From Escherichia coli (GTDB taxonomy: Bacteria; Pseudomonadota; Gammaproteobacteria; Enterobacterales; Enterobacteriaceae): a stretch of DNA of 64,000 nt. The position numbers were made by a program, and so were the translations under genes. The notes beneath the pieces are model-generated. The model did not search any database and had not been told where the DNA came from. It was given only the letters and a program-made list of their open reading frames with translations. The stretch lies in the NCBI RefSeq assembly GCF_003018235.1, contig NZ_CP027437.1. One strand, 5' to 3'. The first letter of the stretch is position 1; each line of letters opens with the position of its first letter. Shown piece after piece: positions 423-55,070 of this stretch.

Positions 423-1841
423 ATGCATGTACAGCCCATTTCAACTTTCCGTTTGTTCCAGGAAGGTCATCTGCTACGTAATAGCATCGCTATTTTTGCG
501 CTAACCACGCTGTTCTATTTTATTGGTGCAGAGTTACGGCTGGTTCACGAACTTTCTCTTTTCTGGCCGCTGAATGGCGTAATGGCGGGGGTGTTTGCCC
601 GCTATGTCTGGCTTAATCGACTGCATTACTATGCGATCAGTTATGTGGCAATGCTGGTTTATGATGCCATAACCACCGAATGGGGGCTGGTTTCACTGGC
701 TATCAATTTCTCCAATATGATGTTTATTGTTACCGTCGCCTTACTGGTCGCGCGGGATAAGCGTCTGGGGAAAAATAAGTACGAGCCAGTAAGTGCCTTA
801 CGGCTATTTAATTACTGTCTGATTGCCGCATTATTATGCGCTATTGTCGGGGCGATTGGTTCGGTCAGTATTGATAGTCTGGATTTCTGGCCTTTGCTTG
901 CCGACTGGTTCAGTGAGCAATTCTCAACGGGCGTGTTGATAGTGCCTTGTATGCTGACGTTGGCAATTCCTGGAGTGCTGCCGCGCTTTAAAGCAGAACA
1001 GATGATGCCCGCTATCGCGCTTATTGTGTCGGTTATTGCCTCGGTAGTCATTGGCGGAGCGGGGAGTCTGGCGTTCCCGCTGCCTGCATTAATCTGGTGT
1101 GCAGTGCGCTATACGCCGCAGGTAACATGTCTGTTGACCTTTGTCACCGGTGCGGTGGAAATCGTACTGGTGGCAAATTCGGTGATTGATATCTCGGTCG
1201 GTTCGCCATTCTCCATTCCAGAAATGTTCTCCGCACGTCTCGGTATTGCCACGATGGCGATATGCCCAATTATGGTTTCTTTTAGCGTGGCAGCGATCAA
1301 TTCGCTAATGAAGCAAGTTGCGCTGCGAGCCGACTTTGATTTTCTGACTCAGGTTTACTCACGGTCCGGTCTTTATGAGGCGCTGAAAAGTCCATCGCTG
1401 AAACAGACACAACATCTGACTGTCATGCTGCTTGATATCGACTATTTCAAAAGTATTAACGATAACTATGGACATGAATGTGGCGATAAAGTGTTAAGCG
1501 TGTTTGCAAGGCATATTCAGAAGATTGTCGGTGATAAGGGGCTGGTGGCACGAATGGGCGGCGAAGAATTTGCTGTTGCAGTGCCATCGGTGAATCCTGT
1601 CGATGGTCTGCTAATGGCGGAAAAAATCCGTAAAGGCGTTGAACTGCAACCGTTCACCTGGCAACAAAAAACGCTTTATCTCACGGTAAGTATTGGCGTC
1701 GGTAGTGGTCGCGCATCGTACCGAACGCTGACCGATGACTTTAATAAATTGATGGTCGAAGCCGATACGTGTCTGTATCGCTCGAAGAAAGATGGGCGCA
1801 ACCGTACCAGCACTATGTGTTACGGTGAGGAAGTTGTCTGA
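423..1841 (+). CDS. dgcF: Membrane-anchored diguanylate cyclase (GGDEF domain, GGEEF motif)
   Basis: 472-aa ORF; N-terminal multi-TM region then GGDEF domain with RMGGEEF. Start codon uncertain. Confidence 0.85.
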   Translation: MHVQPISTFRLFQEGHLLRNSIAIFALTTLFYFIGAELRLVHELSLFWPLNGVMAGVFARYVWLNRLHYYAISYVAMLVYDAITTEWGLVSLAINFSNMMFIVTVALLVARDKRLGKNKYEPVSALRLFNYCLIAALLCAIVGAIGSVSIDSLDFWPLLADWFSEQFSTGVLIVPCMLTLAIPGVLPRFKAEQMMPAIALIVSVIASVVIGGAGSLAFPLPALIWCAVRYTPQVTCLLTFVTGAVEIVLVANSVIDISVGSPFSIPEMFSARLGIATMAICPIMVSFSVAAINSLMKQVALRADFDFLTQVYSRSGLYEALKSPSLKQTQHLTVMLLDIDYFKSINDNYGHECGDKVLSVFARHIQKIVGDKGLVARMGGEEFAVAVPSVNPVDGLLMAEKIRKGVELQPFTWQQKTLYLTVSIGVGSGRASYRTLTDDFNKLMVEADTCLYRSKKDGRNRTSTMCYGEEVV

Positions 1842-2067
1842 CATCTTTATTCATTCAGAGCGATTTAAATGCAATGTGTTCTACCACTTTATGATCCAAG
1901 AAAAGGCGTTTTTCCTCGATTAAACCATGATCCGCGCCACACTTTTCTCATAAAACTGCTCATTAATCATCAGGAGTTGATCAAAACAGGGGTTCGGCGT
2001 ATTAAAGTTTGCTAACCTGTCGTACCAATTCAAACAGGTTGTATGACTAATCAGAAGGGAACCCATT

Positions 2068-3519
2068 GTGAAAACACTAAATCGTCGCGATTTTCCCGGT
2101 GCACAGTATCCAGAACGTATCATTCAGTTTGGTGAAGGTAACTTCCTGCGCGCCTTTGTTGACTGGCAAATCGATCTCCTGAATGAGCACACCGATCTGA
2201 ATTCTGGCGTGGTCGTTGTTCGTCCGATTGAAACTTCATTCCCGCCGTCACTGAGCACGCAGGATGGTCTGTATACCACCATTATCCGTGGCCTGAATGA
2301 GAAGGGTGAAGCGGTCAGCGACGCGCGTCTGATTCGCTCGGTTAATCGTGAAATCAGCGTCTACAGTGAATACGATGAATTCCTGAAACTGGCGCATAAC
2401 CCGGAAATGCGCTTTGTTTTCTCTAACACCACCGAAGCGGGTATCAGCTACCATGCGGGCGATAAATTCGATGACGCGCCAGCGGTAAGTTATCCGGCAA
2501 AACTGACCCGTCTGCTGTTCGAACGTTTTAGCCATTTCAACGGTGCGCTGGATAAAGGTTGGATCATCATCCCGTGTGAGTTGATCGACTACAATGGCGA
2601 CGCGTTGCGTGAACTTGTGCTGCGCTATGCGCAAGAGTGGGCACTACCAGAAGCATTTATTCAATGGCTGGATCAGGCTAACAGCTTCTGTTCTACGCTG
2701 GTGGACCGTATCGTTACCGGCTATCCGCGTGATGAAGTGGCTAAACTGGAAGAAGAACTGGGTTATCACGATGGTTTCCTCGACACCGCTGAACACTTTT
2801 ACCTGTTTGTGATTCAGGGGCCGAAATCCTTAGCGACTGAGCTGTGCCTGGACAAATATCCACTCAACGTGCTGATTGTTGACGATATTAAACCGTACAA
2901 AGAACGCAAAGTGGCAATCCTCAACGGTGCGCACACCGCGCTGGTGCCGGTGGCGTTCCAGGCAGGGCTGGATACCGTAGGTGAAGCGATGAACGATGCT
3001 GAAATTTGCGCATTCGTTGAAAAAGCCATCTACGAAGAAATTATTCCGGTACTGGATTTGCCTCGTGATGAACTGGAATCTTTCGCCAGTGCAGTCACCG
3101 GACGTTTCCGTAACCCGTACATCAAACATCAGTTGCTATCTATCGCCCTCAACGGTATGACCAAGTTCCGCACCCGCATCCTGCCGCAACTGCTGGCAGG
3201 GCAGAAGGCAAACGGCACACTTCCGGCGCGCCTGACTTTCGCATTAGCGGCATTGATTGCGTTTTATCGCGGTGAGCGTAATGGAGAAACATATCCGGTA
3301 CAGGACGATGCACACTGGCTGGAACGTTATCAGCAACTCTGGAGCCAGCATCGTGACCGTGTTATCGGTACCCAGGAACTGGTAGCGATTGTGTTGGCAG
3401 AAAAAGACCACTGGGAGCAGGACCTGACGCAAGTGCCTGGTCTGGTCGAGCAGGTGGCTAATGACCTGGATGTGATTCTCGAAAAAGGAATGCGCGAAGC
3501 TGTACGTCCGTTGTGCTAA
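2068..3519 (+). CDS. uxaB: Altronate oxidoreductase (tagaturonate reductase)
   Basis: 483-aa ORF matching UxaB throughout ([30 protein letters not shown]...); GTG start with AAGGGA SD upstream. Confidence 0.95.
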
Positions 3520-3526
3520 TACCCTG

Positions 3527-3555
3527 AACCCGGTTTCGACCGGGTTTCTTATTTC
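3527..3555 (+). terminator. Rho-independent terminator downstream of uxaB
   Basis: AACCCGGT-ttcg-ACCGGGTT hairpin followed by TCTTATTTC. Confidence 0.6.
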
Positions 3556-3715
3556 ACTATATTAGTTACAACATCCTATGTGCCTTAACCATTAACGGGT
3601 GCCATATGCCACACCTGTATATGTTGTAAGCTTGTAGGTAATTTGTAAGTAGTGTCTTGAGAATGTGATCGTAATCACGTTTAATAGGGCGACTTTTCCA
3701 AGCCTGAAGATAACC

Positions 3716-4630
3716 ATGATTGTTCGTCCACAACAACACTGGCTGCGCCGTATTTTTGTCTGGCACGGTTCAGTATTATCCAAGATATCCTCGCGCTTAC
3801 TACTCAATTTTCTCTTTTCTATCGCTGTTATTTTCATGCTGCCCTGGTACACGCATCTGGGCATCAAATTCACCCTCGCACCGTTCAGCATTCTCGGTGT
3901 CGCCATCGCCATTTTTCTTGGTTTTCGTAATAATGCCGGGTACGCCCGTTACGTTGAAGCGCGAAAACTTTGGGGGCAGTTGATGATTGCCTCACGGTCG
4001 TTACTGCGGGAGGTAAAAACGACATTGCCAGATTCGGCAAGTGTAAGGGAGTTTGCCCGGCTGCAAATCGCCTTCGCTCACTGTTTACGCATGACATTAC
4101 GCAAACAACCACAGGCGGAAGTGCTGGCTCAATATCTCAAGACGGAAGATCTTCAGCGTGTACTGGCTTCGAACTCTCCAGCTAACCGTATCTTGTTAAT
4201 AATGGGGGAGTGGTTGGCGGTTCAGCGCCGCAATGGACAGCTTTCAGATATCCTGTTTATTAGCCTCAACGATCGGCTTAATGATATTTCAGCGGTTCTG
4301 GCAGGCTGCGAGCGCATTGCCTATACGCCAATTCCCTTTGCCTACACCCTGATTTTGCATCGTACCGTTTATCTGTTTTGTATCATGCTGCCGTTCGCGC
4401 TGGTCGTGGACCTGCATTACATGACGCCTTTTATCTCTGTGCTGATTTCCTACACTTTTATTTCGCTGGATTGTCTGGCGGAAGAACTGGAAGATCCGTT
4501 CGGTACTGAAAACAATGATTTACCGCTGGATGCCATCTGCAACGCTATTGAAATTGACCTGTTACAGATGAACGATGAAACAGAAATTCCAGCAAAAATT
4601 CTTCCCGATCGTCATTACCAGCTGACGTAA
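3716..4630 (+). CDS. yneE: Bestrophin-family membrane protein
   Basis: ORF 3665..4630; preferred start ATG 3716 (MIVRPQQHWLRRIF...) giving 304 aa as recalled for YneE. Confidence 0.85.
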   Translation: MIVRPQQHWLRRIFVWHGSVLSKISSRLLLNFLFSIAVIFMLPWYTHLGIKFTLAPFSILGVAIAIFLGFRNNAGYARYVEARKLWGQLMIASRSLLREVKTTLPDSASVREFARLQIAFAHCLRMTLRKQPQAEVLAQYLKTEDLQRVLASNSPANRILLIMGEWLAVQRRNGQLSDILFISLNDRLNDISAVLAGCERIAYTPIPFAYTLILHRTVYLFCIMLPFALVVDLHYMTPFISVLISYTFISLDCLAEELEDPFGTENNDLPLDAICNAIEIDLLQMNDETEIPAKILPDRHYQLT

Positions 4631-4633
4631 TAT

Positions 4634-5392
4634 TTAATCCGTACGCCGGGCAACAATAAACAGACGCGGAAATGCCAGCAGTATCTCTCCGTTCTCTTGC
4701 AGTGGATACTGCTCTTCCAGCATCTGATGGTAGCGCGTAAGAAAATGCTGCTGTTCGCTCTCGGTCAGATCCTGTAACCACGGACGTAATCCGGTGGCGG
4801 TCACCCAATCGATAATCGCCTGGTGCGACGGCATCTGGTGATAGTAGGTGGTTCGCCAGATATCGACCTCACATCCGGCTTCGCTCAAAATATCGTAGTA
4901 AGCATGAACGCCAGCCAGCGGCTCACGCCCGCGATCCGGGTAGTTTTGTTCCCAGGCAACTTCGCGCATGAGCACATGGGTCGGCTCTAGCCAGTTATCT
5001 GGCATCTGTACTGCCAACACACCCTGCGGATTAAGTAAAGAAACCAGATGAGGGAACAATTCGTAGTGGTCGGGCAGCCATTGCAGTGAGGCATTAGCAA
5101 AAATCAGATCGAGTGCCTGTTCCGGTTGCCAGTTGCGGATGTCTGCTTCCACGAACTGGCAGTCTGGCAAAGCACTGCGCGCTTCAGCAATCATCGCCGG
5201 AGACGAGTCGATGCCTGTTATCCTGGCCGCAGGCCAACGTTGATGCAGCAGGGCGGTGCTGTTACCTGGGCCACAGCCAAGATCGGCAACGTATTCGATA
5301 TTTTCCAGCGGCACTCTGGCAAGCAGCTCCACCGCCGGACGCGATCGTTCAGCGGCAAAGTGCAGATATAAAGAGGGGTTCCAGTCAGACAT
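4634..5392 (-). CDS. tam: Trans-aconitate 2-methyltransferase
   Basis: 252-aa ORF, SAM-MTase motif [10 protein letters not shown]; located directly downstream of lsrG on the same strand. Confidence 0.95.
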
Positions 5393-5448
5393 TTTTTTAC
5401 TCCCGTCAGCGCGTTACCCCAATTGTAGATAAAATTGATAAATTCGCC

Positions 5449-5739
5449 TCACGGCATCAACCCATTGAACAGACGTTTTTTACGCGGCCCGGTCATTAAA
5501 GATTCCAGTTTCGCGACACAGGTTTTGTAGTGGGGCGTGGTTTTATGGAACGCCACTGCGTCTTCATCTTTATAGGCTTCGTAGATAAAAAAGCGCGAAT
5601 TCACTTCCGGGTCCTGTAAGACATCGAAGCGCAAATTGCCTTCTTCCTGTACCGAGCCCAGGTGGTTCTGGCGAAAAACTTCGATAAACTCGTCAACCTT
5701 GTCTTCATGAACGTTAATTTCAACCAGTGTGACGTGCAT
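5449..5739 (-). CDS. lsrG: (4S)-4-hydroxy-5-phosphonooxypentane-2,3-dione isomerase (AI-2 degradation)
   Basis: 96-aa ABM-fold ORF at the end of the lsr operon. Confidence 0.9.
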
Positions 5740-5762
5740 AATTCTTCTCCTTAATTCCGCAG

Positions 5763-6638
5763 TTACTGTTTTTCACTCAGATAGAGTTCATATGCCCGAT
5801 CAGCCGTTTCGTTATGGTGTACCACCGCCTGTACGGCTTTCATCATCGCCACCGGATGGTCAGACTGGAAAATATTACGCCCCATATCCACACCAGAAGC
5901 GCCCTGATCGATAGCCTGCCAGCACATTTCCAGCGCCTCGCGCTCCGGTAATTTTTTACCGCCAGCAATAACAATGGGTACCGGACATCCGGCAACAATC
6001 CGTTCAAAACCTTTTTCGACATAATAGGTTTTGATAATTTGCGCCCCCATTTCAGCGGCGATTCGAGTCGCGAGCGAGAAATAACGCTGATCGCGCACCA
6101 TATCTTTGCCCACGCCAGTCACGGCCATGGTCGGCATTCCCACTTTCATTCCGGCATCGATCAGCTGAATAATATTTTTGATCGATTGATGTTCATATTC
6201 GCTGCCGATATAAACCTGCGCCGCCACCGCGCAACTGTTCAGGCGCACGGCGTCATCCATCGATAACGCCACGGCTTCATTACTTAATTCCGCCAGAATA
6301 GAGTTCGCACCTGACGCCCGCAGTACCACCGGCTTATTGGTTGCAGGGGGGACTACGCTGCGCAAAATGCCGCGCGTACACATTAATACATCGGCATGTT
6401 CAAACAGCGGGGCGATATTTATATCAATGCGTTCAAGTCCGGTAGTCGGCCCCTGAAAATAACCATGGTCAAAGGCCAGCATCACGGTTTTACCCGTTTT
6501 CGGATTAAATATCCGTGATAAGCGTGACTGCATTCCCCAATCCAGCGCACCGCAACCTTTCAGGGTAAAAGGGATATTTTGTTGCGGTTGATCGGTACGA
6601 AAATCTTTACCATCTTTAATATCGTCTAAATCTGCCAT
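5763..6638 (-). CDS. lsrF: 3-hydroxy-5-phosphonooxypentane-2,4-dione thiolase (aldolase-like)
   Basis: 291-aa ORF, class I aldolase-like; operon context. Confidence 0.9.
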
Positions 6639-23296: not shown

Positions 23297-24100
23297 ATGA
23301 AAAGCGTACTTGCAGCAGCGGCTATGTCGCTTGTTATTTCTGATTTTGCTAATGCTGAGGAAACAAGAGGTAAAGCTATGATGAAAATAGAACCGTCAGC
23401 GATTTCGGAAGCTGATATTCGTTCCGTCTCACCGGCTCTCGCGCGCTTTGGTCGCGAAGCTATTACTGAAGATCTGTGGACACGCGACGCCCTCTCACCG
23501 AGGGATCGTAGTGTGGTGACCGTCGCCATGCTGATTGCCCGCAACCAGCCTGCCGAGCTTAAGCACTATATTGACGTCGCTCTCGATAGCGGCGTGACGC
23601 CAGCGGAATTATCAGAAATCATTACCCATCTGGCGTTCTACTCAGGTTGGCCAAATGCAATGTCAGCCGTCAGCGTGACCAAAGCAGTATTTGAAACTCG
23701 TGGCGTCACGCCAGATGCGCTTCCTGACGCTTCTCCGGACCTGCTTCCTCTCAATCAGGAAGCAGAAAAGCAGCGTTCAGAGACAGTGGAAAAAAATGTT
23801 GGCCCAATATCTCCAGGCCTGGTTAAATTCACTGCTGATCCACTCTTCCTGGATCTATGGCAAAGACCCGCGCTGAAACCCCGCGACAGAAGCCTGATTA
23901 CGGTCAGCGCCTTAATCGCATCCGGACAGAGCGCGCAGATTGGCTATCACCTCAATAGAGCAATGGATAATGGACTTTCTGTTGAGGAAGCTGGTGAGAT
24001 CGTTACCCAGGCCGCCTTCTATGCTGGCTGGCCAAACGCATTTACCGCTGCTCCGGTTGTGGGAGAGGTGCTAAACAATCGATCATCGAGTAAAAGGTAA
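23297..24100 (+). CDS. Secreted protein with two carboxymuconolactone-decarboxylase (CMD/AhpD-like) domains
   Basis: 267-aa ORF; signal peptide (MKSVLAAAAMSLVISDFANA|EE); internal duplication (...HLAFYSGWPNAMSAV... and ...QAAFYAGWPNAFTAA...). Confidence 0.7.
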   Translation: MKSVLAAAAMSLVISDFANAEETRGKAMMKIEPSAISEADIRSVSPALARFGREAITEDLWTRDALSPRDRSVVTVAMLIARNQPAELKHYIDVALDSGVTPAELSEIITHLAFYSGWPNAMSAVSVTKAVFETRGVTPDALPDASPDLLPLNQEAEKQRSETVEKNVGPISPGLVKFTADPLFLDLWQRPALKPRDRSLITVSALIASGQSAQIGYHLNRAMDNGLSVEEAGEIVTQAAFYAGWPNAFTAAPVVGEVLNNRSSSKR

Positions 24101-50906: not shown

Positions 50907-50940
50907 GTAACAAGCCGGTGCTTTCCCCCCGGCTTGTTAC
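50907..50940 (+). terminator. Terminator-like hairpin downstream of yddW
   Basis: GTAACAAGCCGG-(10 nt)-CCGGCTTGTTAC, perfect 12-bp stem; weak T-tract. Confidence 0.5.
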
Positions 50941-51264: not shown

Positions 51265-52647
51265 ATGGAGATGTATTTTAAAAGAATGAAAGATGAGTGG
51301 ACCGGGCTTGTCGAACAAGCAGATCCGCTCATTCGTGCTAAAGCCGCGGAAATTGCCGTTGCGCATGCCCATTATCTGAGTATTGAGTTTTACCGAATTG
51401 TCCGTATCGACCCGCATGCCGAAGAATTCTTGAGTAATGAACAAGTTGAGCGGCAGTTGAAAAGTGCGATGGAACGCTGGATTATTAACGTGCTTTCTGC
51501 CCAGGTTGACGATGTCGAAAGGCTAATACAAATCCAGCATACCGTTGCGGAAGTGCATGCCCGCATAGGAATTCCGGTAGAAATTGTCGAGATGGGGTTT
51601 CGGGTGCTGAAAAAAATCCTCTATCCAGTCATCTTCTCTTCGGATTATTCCGCCGCAGAAAAACTTCAGGTCTACCATTTCTCTATTAACAGTATTGATA
51701 TCGCTATGGAAGTGATGACCCGCGCGTTTACCTTTAGTGACAGTAGTGCCTCAAAGGAAGATGAAAACTATCGTATCTTCTCGTTACTGGAAAATGCCGA
51801 AGAAGAAAAAGAACGGCAAATAGCCTCATTACTTCCATGGGAAATAGATATTATCTATAAAGTCCTGCTGGATTCTGATTTAGGCAGTAGTTTGCCTTTA
51901 AGCCAGGCTGATTTTGGCCTGTGGTTTAACCATAAAGGGCGACATTATTTTAGCGGCATAGCCGAAGTGGGCCATATCTCCCGTCTGATTCAGGATTTTG
52001 ACGGTATTTTCAATCAAACCATGCGTAACACCAGGAATTTGAATAACAGAAGTTTACGGGTGAAATTTTTATTACAGATAAGAAATACCGTATCGCAAAT
52101 TATTACCTTGTTGCGTGAATTGTTTGAAGAAGTATCGCGCCACGAAGTCGGTATGGATGTACTGACGAAATTACTTAACCGCCGTTTCCTGCCGACGATC
52201 TTCAAACGCGAAATTGCCCATGCCAACCGGACCGGCACACCGCTGTCAGTGCTGATTATTGACGTTGATAAATTCAAAGAGATCAACGATACGTGGGGCC
52301 ATAACACTGGCGATGAAATTCTGCGTAAAGTCTCTCAGGCCTTTTATGACAACGTCCGCAGTAGTGATTATGTTTTCCGCTACGGTGGCGATGAATTTAT
52401 CATTGTTTTGACTGAAGCTTCTGAAAACGAAACGTTACGTACCGCAGAACGTATTCGCAGTCGGGTGGAGAAAACCAAACTGAAAGCCGCAAACGGCGAA
52501 GATATTGCCCTCTCACTTTCCATCAGTGCTGCCATGTTTAATGGTCATCCTGACTATGAGCGCCTCATTCAAATAGCCGATGAAGCTCTGTATATCGCCA
52601 AAAGACGAGGTAGAAACCGTGTTGAACTCTGGAAAGCCAGTCTTTAG
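51265..52647 (+). CDS. dosC: Globin-coupled oxygen-sensing diguanylate cyclase
   Basis: 460-aa ORF (MEMYFKRMKDEW...), globin domain plus GGDEF (RYGGDEF). Confidence 0.95.
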   Translation: MEMYFKRMKDEWTGLVEQADPLIRAKAAEIAVAHAHYLSIEFYRIVRIDPHAEEFLSNEQVERQLKSAMERWIINVLSAQVDDVERLIQIQHTVAEVHARIGIPVEIVEMGFRVLKKILYPVIFSSDYSAAEKLQVYHFSINSIDIAMEVMTRAFTFSDSSASKEDENYRIFSLLENAEEEKERQIASLLPWEIDIIYKVLLDSDLGSSLPLSQADFGLWFNHKGRHYFSGIAEVGHISRLIQDFDGIFNQTMRNTRNLNNRSLRVKFLLQIRNTVSQIITLLRELFEEVSRHEVGMDVLTKLLNRRFLPTIFKREIAHANRTGTPLSVLIIDVDKFKEINDTWGHNTGDEILRKVSQAFYDNVRSSDYVFRYGGDEFIIVLTEASENETLRTAERIRSRVEKTKLKAANGEDIALSLSISAAMFNGHPDYERLIQIADEALYIAKRRGRNRVELWKASL

Positions 52648-52733
52648 ATGCGCCAGGATGCAGAGGTAATCATGAAGCTAACCGATGCGGATAATGCCGC
52701 CGATGGCATTTTTTCCCCGCCCTTGAGCAAAAT

Positions 52734-55070
52734 ATGATGGGCGCGGTGTTAATTAACGAAAATGATGAAGTGATGTTTTTCAACCCCGCCGCAGAGAAGC
52801 TCTGGGGGTACAAACGTGAAGAAGTTATTGGCAATAACATTGATATGCTGATTCCGCGGGATTTGCGTCCCGCGCATCCTGAATACATCCGTCACAACCG
52901 TGAAGGCGGTAAAGCGCGCGTCGAGGGGATGAGTCGGGAGCTGCAGCTGGAGAAAAAAGACGGCAGTAAAATCTGGACCCGTTTTGCGCTATCGAAAGTG
53001 AGCGCCGAGGGTAAAATTTATTACCTGGCGCTGGTACGGGATGCCAGCGTAGAAATGGCGCAAAAAGAACAGACCCGACAATTGATTATTGCCGTTGACC
53101 ATCTCGACCGACCGGTGATTGTCCTCGATCCGGAACGCCATATTGTGCAGTGCAATCGCGCATTTACCGAAATGTTTGGTTACTGCATTAGCGAAGCCAG
53201 CGGTATGCAGCCCGATTCACTCCTTAACATTCCAGAATTCCCTGCTGATAACCGCATTCGTTTACAACAGTTGCTATGGAAAACCGCCCGCGATCAGGAC
53301 GAATTTCTGCTGTTGACGCGCACCGGTGAAAAAATCTGGATTAAAGCCTCTATCAGCCCGGTCTATGATGTGCTCGCGCATCTGCAGAACCTGGTAATGA
53401 CTTTCTCGGATATCACCGAAGAACGGCAAATCCGCCAGCTTGAAGGCAATATTCTCGCCGCCATGTGCAGCAGCCCGCCATTTCATGAAATGGGGGAAAT
53501 TATTTGTCGTAACATCGAATCTGTACTCAACGAATCGCATGTTTCGCTGTTCGCGCTGCGCAACGGGATGCCGATACACTGGGCGTCATCTTCGCACGGT
53601 GCAGAAGTTCAAAATGCGCAAAGCTGGTCAGCGACCATTCGTCAGCGTGATGGTGCGCCTGCGGGGATCCTGCAAATTAAAACCTCGTCAGGAGCAGAAA
53701 CCAGCGCCTTTATCGAACGCGTGGCAGATATCAGCCAGCATATGGCCGCGCTGGCGCTGGAACAGGAAAAAAGCCGTCAGCATATTGAACAACTCATCCA
53801 ATTTGATCCGATGACCGGTCTGCCAAATCGCAATAACCTGCACAATTACCTCGATGACCTGGTCGACAAAGCCGTCTCTCCGGTGGTCTATCTCATCGGT
53901 GTTGACCATATTCAGGATGTGATTGATAGCCTTGGCTATGCGTGGGCCGATCAGGCATTGCTGGAAGTAGTCAATCGCTTTCGTGAAAAACTCAAACCGG
54001 ATCAGTATCTCTGTCGTATCGAAGGTACGCAGTTTGTCCTCGTGAGCCTGGAAAACGACGTCAGTAACATAACCCAAATCGCCGATGAGCTACGGAATGT
54101 GGTCAGCAAGCCGATAATGATTGACGATAAACCATTCCCGCTCACCTTGAGCATTGGCATCAGCTACGACGTGGGTAAAAACCGCGATTACCTGCTCTCC
54201 ACTGCTCACAATGCAATGGATTATATTCGCAAGAATGGCGGTAACGGCTGGCAGTTCTTCAGCCCGGCGATGAACGAAATGGTAAAAGAGCGTTTGGTTT
54301 TAGGCGCGGCGCTGAAAGAAGCAATTAGCAATAACCAACTGAAACTGGTTTACCAGCCGCAAATCTTCGCAGAAACGGGTGAACTGTACGGCATCGAAGC
54401 CCTTGCTCGCTGGCACGATCCCCTGCATGGTCATGTGCCCCCTTCACGGTTTATTCCTCTCGCAGAAGAGATCGGTGAAATCGAAAACATTGGGCGCTGG
54501 GTCATCGCGGAAGCTTGTCGTCAGTTAGCAGAATGGCGTAGCCAGAATATTCATATCCCGGCGCTTTCCGTTAACTTGTCGGCGCTGCACTTTCGCAGTA
54601 ATCAACTGCCTAATCAGGTGTCTGATGCAATGCACGCCTGGGGTATTGACGGCCACCAGCTGACGGTGGAAATCACGGAAAGCATGATGATGGAACACGA
54701 TACCGAAATCTTTAAGCGCATTCAGATCCTGCGCGATATGGGCGTGGGTTTATCGGTAGATGATTTTGGCACGGGCTTTTCCGGATTATCCCGCTTAGTC
54801 AGTCTTCCGGTAACGGAAATCAAAATTGACAAAAGTTTTGTCGATCGTTGTCTGACCGAAAAACGCATCCTTGCCTTACTTGAAGCCATTACCAGCATTG
54901 GGCAAAGCCTTAATTTAACCGTCGTGGCGGAAGGCGTCGAAACCAAAGAGCAATTTGAGATGCTACGCAAGATCCACTGTCGCGTTATTCAGGGATATTT
55001 CTTTTCCCGCCCCCTGCCCGCCGAAGAAATTCCAGGCTGGATGAGCAGTGTGTTACCGCTGAAAATCTGA
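52734..55070 (+). CDS. dosP: Heme-PAS oxygen-sensing c-di-GMP phosphodiesterase; 5' end frame-disrupted relative to the expected N-terminus
   Basis: 778-aa ORF with PAS, degenerate GGDEF and EAL domains. An in-frame-expected N-terminal extension (ATG 52648 or 52672) is in the -1 frame here; see findings. Confidence 0.85.
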   Translation: MMGAVLINENDEVMFFNPAAEKLWGYKREEVIGNNIDMLIPRDLRPAHPEYIRHNREGGKARVEGMSRELQLEKKDGSKIWTRFALSKVSAEGKIYYLALVRDASVEMAQKEQTRQLIIAVDHLDRPVIVLDPERHIVQCNRAFTEMFGYCISEASGMQPDSLLNIPEFPADNRIRLQQLLWKTARDQDEFLLLTRTGEKIWIKASISPVYDVLAHLQNLVMTFSDITEERQIRQLEGNILAAMCSSPPFHEMGEIICRNIESVLNESHVSLFALRNGMPIHWASSSHGAEVQNAQSWSATIRQRDGAPAGILQIKTSSGAETSAFIERVADISQHMAALALEQEKSRQHIEQLIQFDPMTGLPNRNNLHNYLDDLVDKAVSPVVYLIGVDHIQDVIDSLGYAWADQALLEVVNRFREKLKPDQYLCRIEGTQFVLVSLENDVSNITQIADELRNVVSKPIMIDDKPFPLTLSIGISYDVGKNRDYLLSTAHNAMDYIRKNGGNGWQFFSPAMNEMVKERLVLGAALKEAISNNQLKLVYQPQIFAETGELYGIEALARWHDPLHGHVPPSRFIPLAEEIGEIENIGRWVIAEACRQLAEWRSQNIHIPALSVNLSALHFRSNQLPNQVSDAMHAWGIDGHQLTVEITESMMMEHDTEIFKRIQILRDMGVGLSVDDFGTGFSGLSRLVSLPVTEIKIDKSFVDRCLTEKRILALLEAITSIGQSLNLTVVAEGVETKEQFEMLRKIHCRVIQGYFFSRPLPAEEIPGWMSSVLPLKI

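Follow-up and report, generated by a model that had tools for sequence, protein, structure and literature searches.

DosP of Escherichia coli (also PdeO, YddU or EcDOS; UniProt P76129) is a heme-PAS oxygen-sensing c-di-GMP phosphodiesterase. As described in the work on its full-length structure (Nat Commun 2024, PMC11543664), the ON state with bound O2 is stabilised by Met30, which touches the other monomer at residues 93-95 and 114-116. The M30A mutant has a lowered O2 affinity and a weak phosphodiesterase activity which is stimulated by neither air nor CO (PMC11543664). Residue numbers in this literature are historical and include an 8-residue extension, MRQDAEVI, given in the Methods of the same paper. 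Natural isolates with a lost or truncated dosC or dosP have been described before (PMC5635171).

Gene pairs whose stop and start codons overlap constitute a second described system of relevance here. ATGA and TGATG overlaps are geometries supporting termination-reinitiation (Huber et al. 2019, PMC6728339). The contribution of the Shine-Dalgarno sequence (SD) to this process differs between gene pairs. In E. coli, its removal abolished reinitiation in one of five pairs and reduced it by 60-90% in three of them, and SD-less reinitiation is inefficient in this bacterium (PMC6728339).

The locus described here was found in a window of 64,000 nucleotides of E. coli DNA, the whole stretch that was analysed. 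It shares with DosP P76129 the same locus, gene order, heme ligands, EGTQF motif and EAL domain. Unlike P76129, it has lost one T in codons 13-15, the native frame ends after 21 codons and a shortened product would be made at most. Every sequence-level feature of DosP was thus found, except an uninterrupted 799-aa frame from the native start. The deletion, from seven T to six (T7 to T6), is real, and it is inherited and fixed in this E. coli clone. Taken as a whole, an inherited T7 to T6 change leaving the clone with a null or strongly weakened DosP is, in our judgement, the likely account of this locus. The event is of an ordinary and known kind, a homopolymer frameshift in E. coli dosP, and the lesion is already labelled in RefSeq. 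The original prediction, made from the window alone, had omitted the outcome that convention would put first, namely a null or near-null pseudogene, as PGAP labels the same allele in strains VR50 and 2EC1.

The dosCP locus and its T tract

dosC, the first gene of the dosCP operon, has an intact reading frame. The gene order digH-dosC-dosP-ddpX and the neighbouring genes match those of KE55, MEW, AF39 and 042. Features of the locus are collected in Table 1. All coordinates of the original prediction hold, for the ATGs at 52648 and 52672 as well as for the GAGG, the T6 run, the TGA and the 778-aa ORF. The SD pairing at the ATG at 52648 is weak (-3.3 kcal/mol). The upstream frame reads MRQDAEVIMKLTDADNAADGIFSPPLSKI* and terminates at the TGA at 52735-52737, which overlaps the ATGATG at 52734-52739 and so creates both an ATGA and a TGATG stop-start overlap.

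Table 1. Features of the dosCP locus in the window
Feature	Position	Strand	Basis
dosC, diguanylate cyclase DosC, 460 aa	51265-52647	+	ORF list; Pfam Protoglobin, DosC_2nd, GGDEF; RefSeq orthologues
SNP private to the window genome, dosC codon 421 AGC (Ser) for GGC (Gly)	52525	+	
dosC stop codon TAG	52645-52647	+	
ATG of the historical 807-residue numbering (MRQDAEVI...), abutting the dosC stop	52648-52650	+	PMC11543664, Methods
GAGG Shine-Dalgarno of the native dosP start	52662-52665	+	-7.1 kcal/mol duplex with the 16S rRNA 3' end
Native dosP start codon (UniProt P76129, RefSeq; MKLTD...)	52672-52674	+	RefSeq CDS start in KE55, MEW, AF39, 042
Residual native-frame ORF, 21 codons (MKLTDADNAADGIFSPPLSKI) + TGA	52672-52737	+	Translation
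T6 run, site of the 1-bp deletion; T7 in reference alleles	52709-52714	+	Sole indel versus 042 in 24.5 kb
ATGATG, two in-frame Met codons (Met30 and Met31, historical numbering), candidate reinitiation site	52734-52739	+	
dosP remainder, intact 778-codon ORF	52734-55070	+	ORF list; -1 frame relative to the upstream frame
dosP overall, frameshifted gene, pseudogene by PGAP criteria	52672-55070	+	Same T6 allele 'frameshifted' in VR50 and 2EC1

The residues upstream of the 778-aa ORF had been proposed to be the in-frame N-terminus of the reference protein. The PDB DosP chains and RefSeq dosP from four genomes agree with this, as they read MKLTDAD.AADGIFFPALEQNMMGAV in frame with MMGAV. The heme ligands known in the literature as His77 and Met95 are His48 and Met66 of the 778-aa ORF. 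The predicted offset of 29 residues is borne out as the sum of the 21 residues of the UniProt and RefSeq protein (MKLTDADNAADGIFFPALEQN) and the 8 residues (MRQDAEVI) of the historical numbering.

T7 is the norm among complete E. coli genomes. An exact 97-nt junction with T7 matches 1,299 complete-genome records, and the exact 96-nt junction with T6 gave no match, the locus being carried by some 5,300 complete genomes of E. coli. Alignment of dosC-dosP junctions from other E. coli genomes, with the T run counted in each, gave T7 in the references and confirmed the supposition that a single T has gone from the homopolymer. The T7 tract spans dosP codons 13-15. All ten T7 loci fetched (L001-L004 and L021-L026; the T6 loci being L006-L010 and L016-L020) code for a protein of 799 aa whose start corresponds to the ATG at 52672, and not, with T6, at the methionine of MMGAV, the arrangement on which the original prediction would have fallen. 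The difference between T6 and the reference T7 is a direct sequence difference, in which no statistical pattern is involved.

Possible restart at the premature stop

Ribosomes loaded at the well-equipped ATG at 52672 would terminate after 21 codons, and full-length DosP would be absent. Any further translation of dosP would depend on the two ATGs at the premature stop. Their SD duplex energy is -1.9 kcal/mol versus -7.1 kcal/mol for the native start. Pairing is weaker here than the window-wide ATG median (-2.4 kcal/mol, 1,291 ATGs), and falls short of the SD threshold of -3.5 kcal/mol applied in PMC6728339. The internal ATGs thus lack SD pairing, so that translation from them could proceed solely via SD-less reinitiation; de novo initiation at an internal ATG is unlikely.

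The premature TGA overlaps the ATG-ATG in both canonical geometries, as in the stop-start overlap pairs described above. Unlike in those pairs, the overlap came about accidentally within a single gene, and the downstream start lacks the upstream SD that most E. coli pairs need. Reinitiation at TGA/ATGATG is plausible but probably inefficient. While the frame consequences of the deletion and the missing SD are read directly from the DNA, we infer the extent of reinitiation from the pairs studied by Huber et al. Some of the terminating ribosomes may resume at the ATG-ATG and yield a DosP of 778 or 777 residues, and as the restart site has no SD pairing, the yield of this product should be low. 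The truncated DosP from an internal start envisaged in the original prediction is in this sense a possible product but not a favoured one, given that the internal ATGs are without SD pairing.

The possible 778-codon product and its predicted activity

The 778-codon remainder encodes the heme-PAS core with its His and Met ligands, the PAS-PAC region, the silent GGDEF domain (EGTQF) and the EAL domain. By Pfam, the PAS core covers residues 24/25-124 in the 799-aa form and residues 4-103 in the 778-aa form, and PAS_9 scores 97.7 bits in both. PAS_4, GGDEF and EAL were also found, and the scores of these later domains are unchanged relative to the 799-aa form. What the short form lacks is the segment ahead of the PAS core. 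The chain sequence of the cryo-EM structure 9CMF starts at historical residue 20, from which we take residues 20-29 (GIFFPALEQN) to be ordered in DosP.

The first residue of the ORF is Met30 itself in historical numbering. Compared with DosP M30A (PMC11543664), the same element of the hPAS dimer interface is affected here; in contrast to M30A, the Met30 side chain may remain, while the chain preceding it is gone. Given the role of Met30 at the interface and the phenotype of M30A, a product that begins with Met30 or Met31 and has no chain ahead of it is likely impaired at this same interface. The comparison with M30A, from which we infer the activity of the product, further suggests that O2-stimulated c-di-GMP hydrolysis is impaired. 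The restart product would thus keep every catalytic domain, the heme ligands and the PAS core, but be deprived of the ordered residues 20-29. Met30, on which the oxygen-bound ON state depends at the dimer interface, would be left as a free N-terminus or removed. The net effect would be that oxygen-stimulated c-di-GMP degradation, which acts opposite DosC, is lost or strongly weakened.

On the other hand, the 778-codon ORF is well preserved. When the T run is repaired in silico, the resulting 799-aa protein is exactly the common allele, present in 410 blocks of the protein collection, and the 778-aa ORF is identical in amino acids to residues 22-799 of this common intact allele. Therefore, no amino-acid change has accumulated since the frameshift. 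T7 genomes with that allele differ from the window dosP by 12-18 substitutions; since the proteins do not differ, every one of these is silent. In 11/11 T6 sequences (nine of the clone, VR50 and 2EC1), the 778-codon ORF is intact. Eight SNPs were observed within the clone, of which dosP contains none versus about 2.2 expected, a comparison based on few events and little divergence. The absence of decay fits a recent lesion and a tolerated short protein alike.

This preservation bears on the idea that restart is efficient and provides useful amounts of a 778-aa DosP, with O2 sensing and c-di-GMP degradation kept and the frameshift nearly silent. An ORF maintained intact without amino-acid change in every T6 genome examined would fit a truncated protein which is still useful. 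The canonical ATGA/TGATG geometry is there to support coupling, and the PAS core is complete by Pfam in the short form, the downstream domains being retained with unchanged scores. However, the restart site has no SD (-1.9 kcal/mol), and loss of the SD reduced or abolished reinitiation in 4/5 E. coli pairs (PMC6728339). Moreover, the ON state requires the side-chain contact of M30, the residue at which the product begins, and the ordered segment ahead of M30 is gone. Finally, a recent mutation would account just as well for the lack of decay, the clone isolates being 1-3 SNPs apart per 8.4 kb. For these reasons, we regard efficient restart as unlikely and prefer a null or strongly weakened DosP.

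Members of the clone are accordingly best treated as dosP-deficient or dosP-attenuated. Oxygen control of c-di-GMP in these strains, and through it their behaviour with respect to curli, PNAG and biofilms, may not be that of K-12. Gene callers reporting a 778-aa 'DosP' at this locus conceal a frameshift. The T6 allele also represents an accidental experiment of nature on the roles of the first 29 residues and of the placement of Met30 in DosP signalling, a question arising directly from the full-length structures of 2024 (PMC11543664).

A different evolutionary scenario would involve the dosC gene as well. The G421S change, carried by the window genome alone, sits in the GGDEF domain of DosC, within its conserved SIG strand, and lowers the GGDEF profile score from 173.1 to 167.8 bits; PleD has a Gly at the position aligned to DosC 421. 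The DosC sequence with this change is on record from a single contig. The corresponding nucleotide is G in all eight other assemblies of the T6 clone. One could imagine the T7 tract as a recurrent target of adaptive tuning. Loss of a T would give a low-abundance restart DosP without its N-terminal segment, in which the heme-PAS interface would be locked towards OFF. DosC-derived c-di-GMP would rise and the allele would be fixed by selection, with G421S then acting as a second-site compensation lowering cyclase output. We mention this scenario as a speculative one, of quite low probability.

It is very doubtful that the frame is restored by slippage, either through RNA polymerase adding a U on U6 or through tRNA-Phe slipping -1 on U_UUU, to give the wild-type GIFFPALEQNMM and some full-length DosP. 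A -1 slip in the P site would indeed read UUC CCC GCC CUU GAG CAA AAU AUG AUG, which is the exact wild-type peptide. Yet the native-frame codons are AUU UUU UCC and offer no in-frame X XXY YYZ tandem-slippery heptamer, the signal of programmed -1 frameshifting, so that the A-site tRNA cannot re-pair after the shift. As for transcriptional slippage, a tract of six T/U is short, being below the run lengths known to give it to an appreciable extent. From these sequence features, we expect slippage to yield traces of full-length DosP at most.

Inheritance and recurrence of the T6 allele

The deletion and its inheritance are observed directly. Decisive for a true mutation is that 14 contigs on record encode the exact 778-aa product. 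Eight further assemblies of the clone, three assembled from SRA runs (L006-L008) and five NCBI drafts (L016-L020), all carry T6, which is therefore an inherited allele of the clone. They differ from the window at 1-3 positions per about 8.4 kb, and each has one or two SNPs beyond the shared difference at 52525, except L020, which has none. The five drafts list no protein for the interval from dosC to ddpX, which would be expected if dosP was annotated as a pseudogene by the submitters. Over positions 39501-64000 of the window (24.5 kb), the T run is the sole indel relative to E. coli 042. The remaining indels of the window versus 042 all lie between annotated genes of 042, judging from the alignment coordinates (about 58 kb aligned overall). 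When 39 complete genes of 042 were projected onto the window, 38 of them were full length and gap-free, dosP alone being broken. Homopolymer errors are therefore not a tendency of this assembly.

The original prediction had left room for a homopolymer base-calling or assembly error in an isolate that is truly T7 with an intact dosP. Homopolymer runs are a classic place for indel errors, and the lineage of the window is absent from complete RefSeq genomes (best match 99.2% over 24 kb). Such an error is nevertheless effectively refuted, as T6 is common to eight other assemblies that come from different runs and BioSamples and differ by private SNPs, and the alignment of about 58 kb holds no other in-gene indel, with 38/39 projected genes intact.

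The same lesion was also observed outside the clone. A 40-nt T6 query, which cannot seed on T7, retrieved two complete genomes, VR50 (NZ_CP011134.1) and 2EC1 (NZ_CP047571.1), in both of which RefSeq/PGAP annotates dosP as a 'frameshifted' pseudogene. Control queries with T7 (41 nt) and T8 (42 nt) gave no hit, presumably because BLAST masks the longer T run as low-complexity sequence, and carry no information on how frequent T7 or T8 is. Like the window, VR50 and 2EC1 display the identical T6 lesion, the 21-codon residual frame and the intact 778-codon ORF. Unlike it, they carry different dosCP haplotypes, with 83 (VR50) and 78 (2EC1) mismatches to the window per 3.8 kb and 54 between the two; 2EC1 also has GAA where the window has GAG, upstream of the restart ATG. 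Each of the three T6 haplotypes is about as near to T7 genomes as to the other T6 haplotypes. The presence of T6 on such divergent haplotypes suggests that the same deletion probably arose more than once, with independent origins in VR50, 2EC1 (represented by one assembly each) and the present clone.

Could the T tract then be a phase-variable contingency locus, toggling dosP on and off at high frequency? The passage from T7 to T6 on three haplotypes that are 54-83 differences apart per 3.8 kb would agree with this, but phase variation is unlikely, and we give this reading hardly any weight: contingency loci would call for a tract longer than 7 nt, the clone shows no variation of tract length among its close relatives (9/9 sequences are T6), and T6 was found in only two of the roughly 5,300 complete genomes carrying the locus. 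Two points may retain the attention of specialists of this system: the restart codon created by accident is that of Met30, and the T tract has probably been a target more than once.

Probable recurrent T loss in the dosP tract, and other runs

The two unrelated complete genomes VR50 and 2EC1 carry differing dosCP haplotypes and display the identical T7-to-T6 loss in dosP. In both, the 778-codon ORF, that is the remainder of dosP 3′ of the frameshift, is unbroken. The dosP T tract looks like a recurrent slippage site. A yddB deletion was found in the close relative AF39, where it adjoins a short G run; yddB is unbroken in the window. The C-run between digH and dosC differs in both length and sequence among close relatives, with C6 in the window, C5 in MEW and an interrupted run in AF39, and it falls in the region expected to contain the dosCP promoter or leader.

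Features in the window and in compared genomes
Feature	Location	Description
1,183-aa ORF	window 14651-18202; further segment 18182-18786	ESPR type V secretion signal
hipBA	window 18447-20053	
Four ORFs	window 20846-24100	all in one direction; between hipA and the fimbrial operon
C-run	window 50925-50930	digH-dosC intergenic, upstream of dosC
dosC codon 421	window 52525	AGC (Ser) vs GGC (Gly)
yddB	AF39 (L003, NZ_OZ547136.1) 1274-3645	1-nt deletion; aligned to window 42321; annotated 'frameshifted'
dosP	VR50 (L009, NZ_CP011134.1) 3477-5875	T7-to-T6 deletion; annotated 'frameshifted'
dosP	2EC1 (L010, NZ_CP047571.1) 3477-5875	T7-to-T6 deletion; annotated 'frameshifted'
ddpX, short call	SRR22548703 (L008) 5595-6104	169 aa vs 193

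Substitutions in dosC and ddpX

DosC residue 421 sits within a conserved GGDEF-domain strand (...SLSIGAA...), and the equivalent position in PleD is Gly. Within the window's own clone, which carries T6 (the T6 clone), Ser is found in the window's genome alone, Gly being present in all eight other assemblies as in reference DosC. With Ser421, the score against the Pfam GGDEF profile is 5.3 bits lower. The substitution could weaken the cyclase partner of an already broken phosphodiesterase; alternatively, it may be no more than a single erroneous base.

Another isolate of the T6 clone, SRR22548703, displays a C-to-T change at the position matching window 55835 together with its short ddpX call, which would fit a putative premature stop at ddpX codon 170. 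Shortened ddpX or ddpA calls likewise occur in several genomes with T7 dosP (L022-L024).

Gene content around hipBA

The 1,183-aa ORF gave no match to an autotransporter beta-barrel domain at a cut-off of 1e-5, and its orthologue in E. coli 042 is annotated as a pseudogene. The ORF, which adjoins hipBA, is probably what remains of a truncated autotransporter. The alignment between the window and 042 is interrupted at 18182; hipBA looks complete in the window and is partial in 042.

The four ORFs beyond hipA encode a flavodoxin-like fold protein, an aldo/keto reductase, an ABM monooxygenase-domain protein and a carboxymuconolactone decarboxylase-family protein. They look like a small accessory island, and 042 lacks them at the equivalent position.
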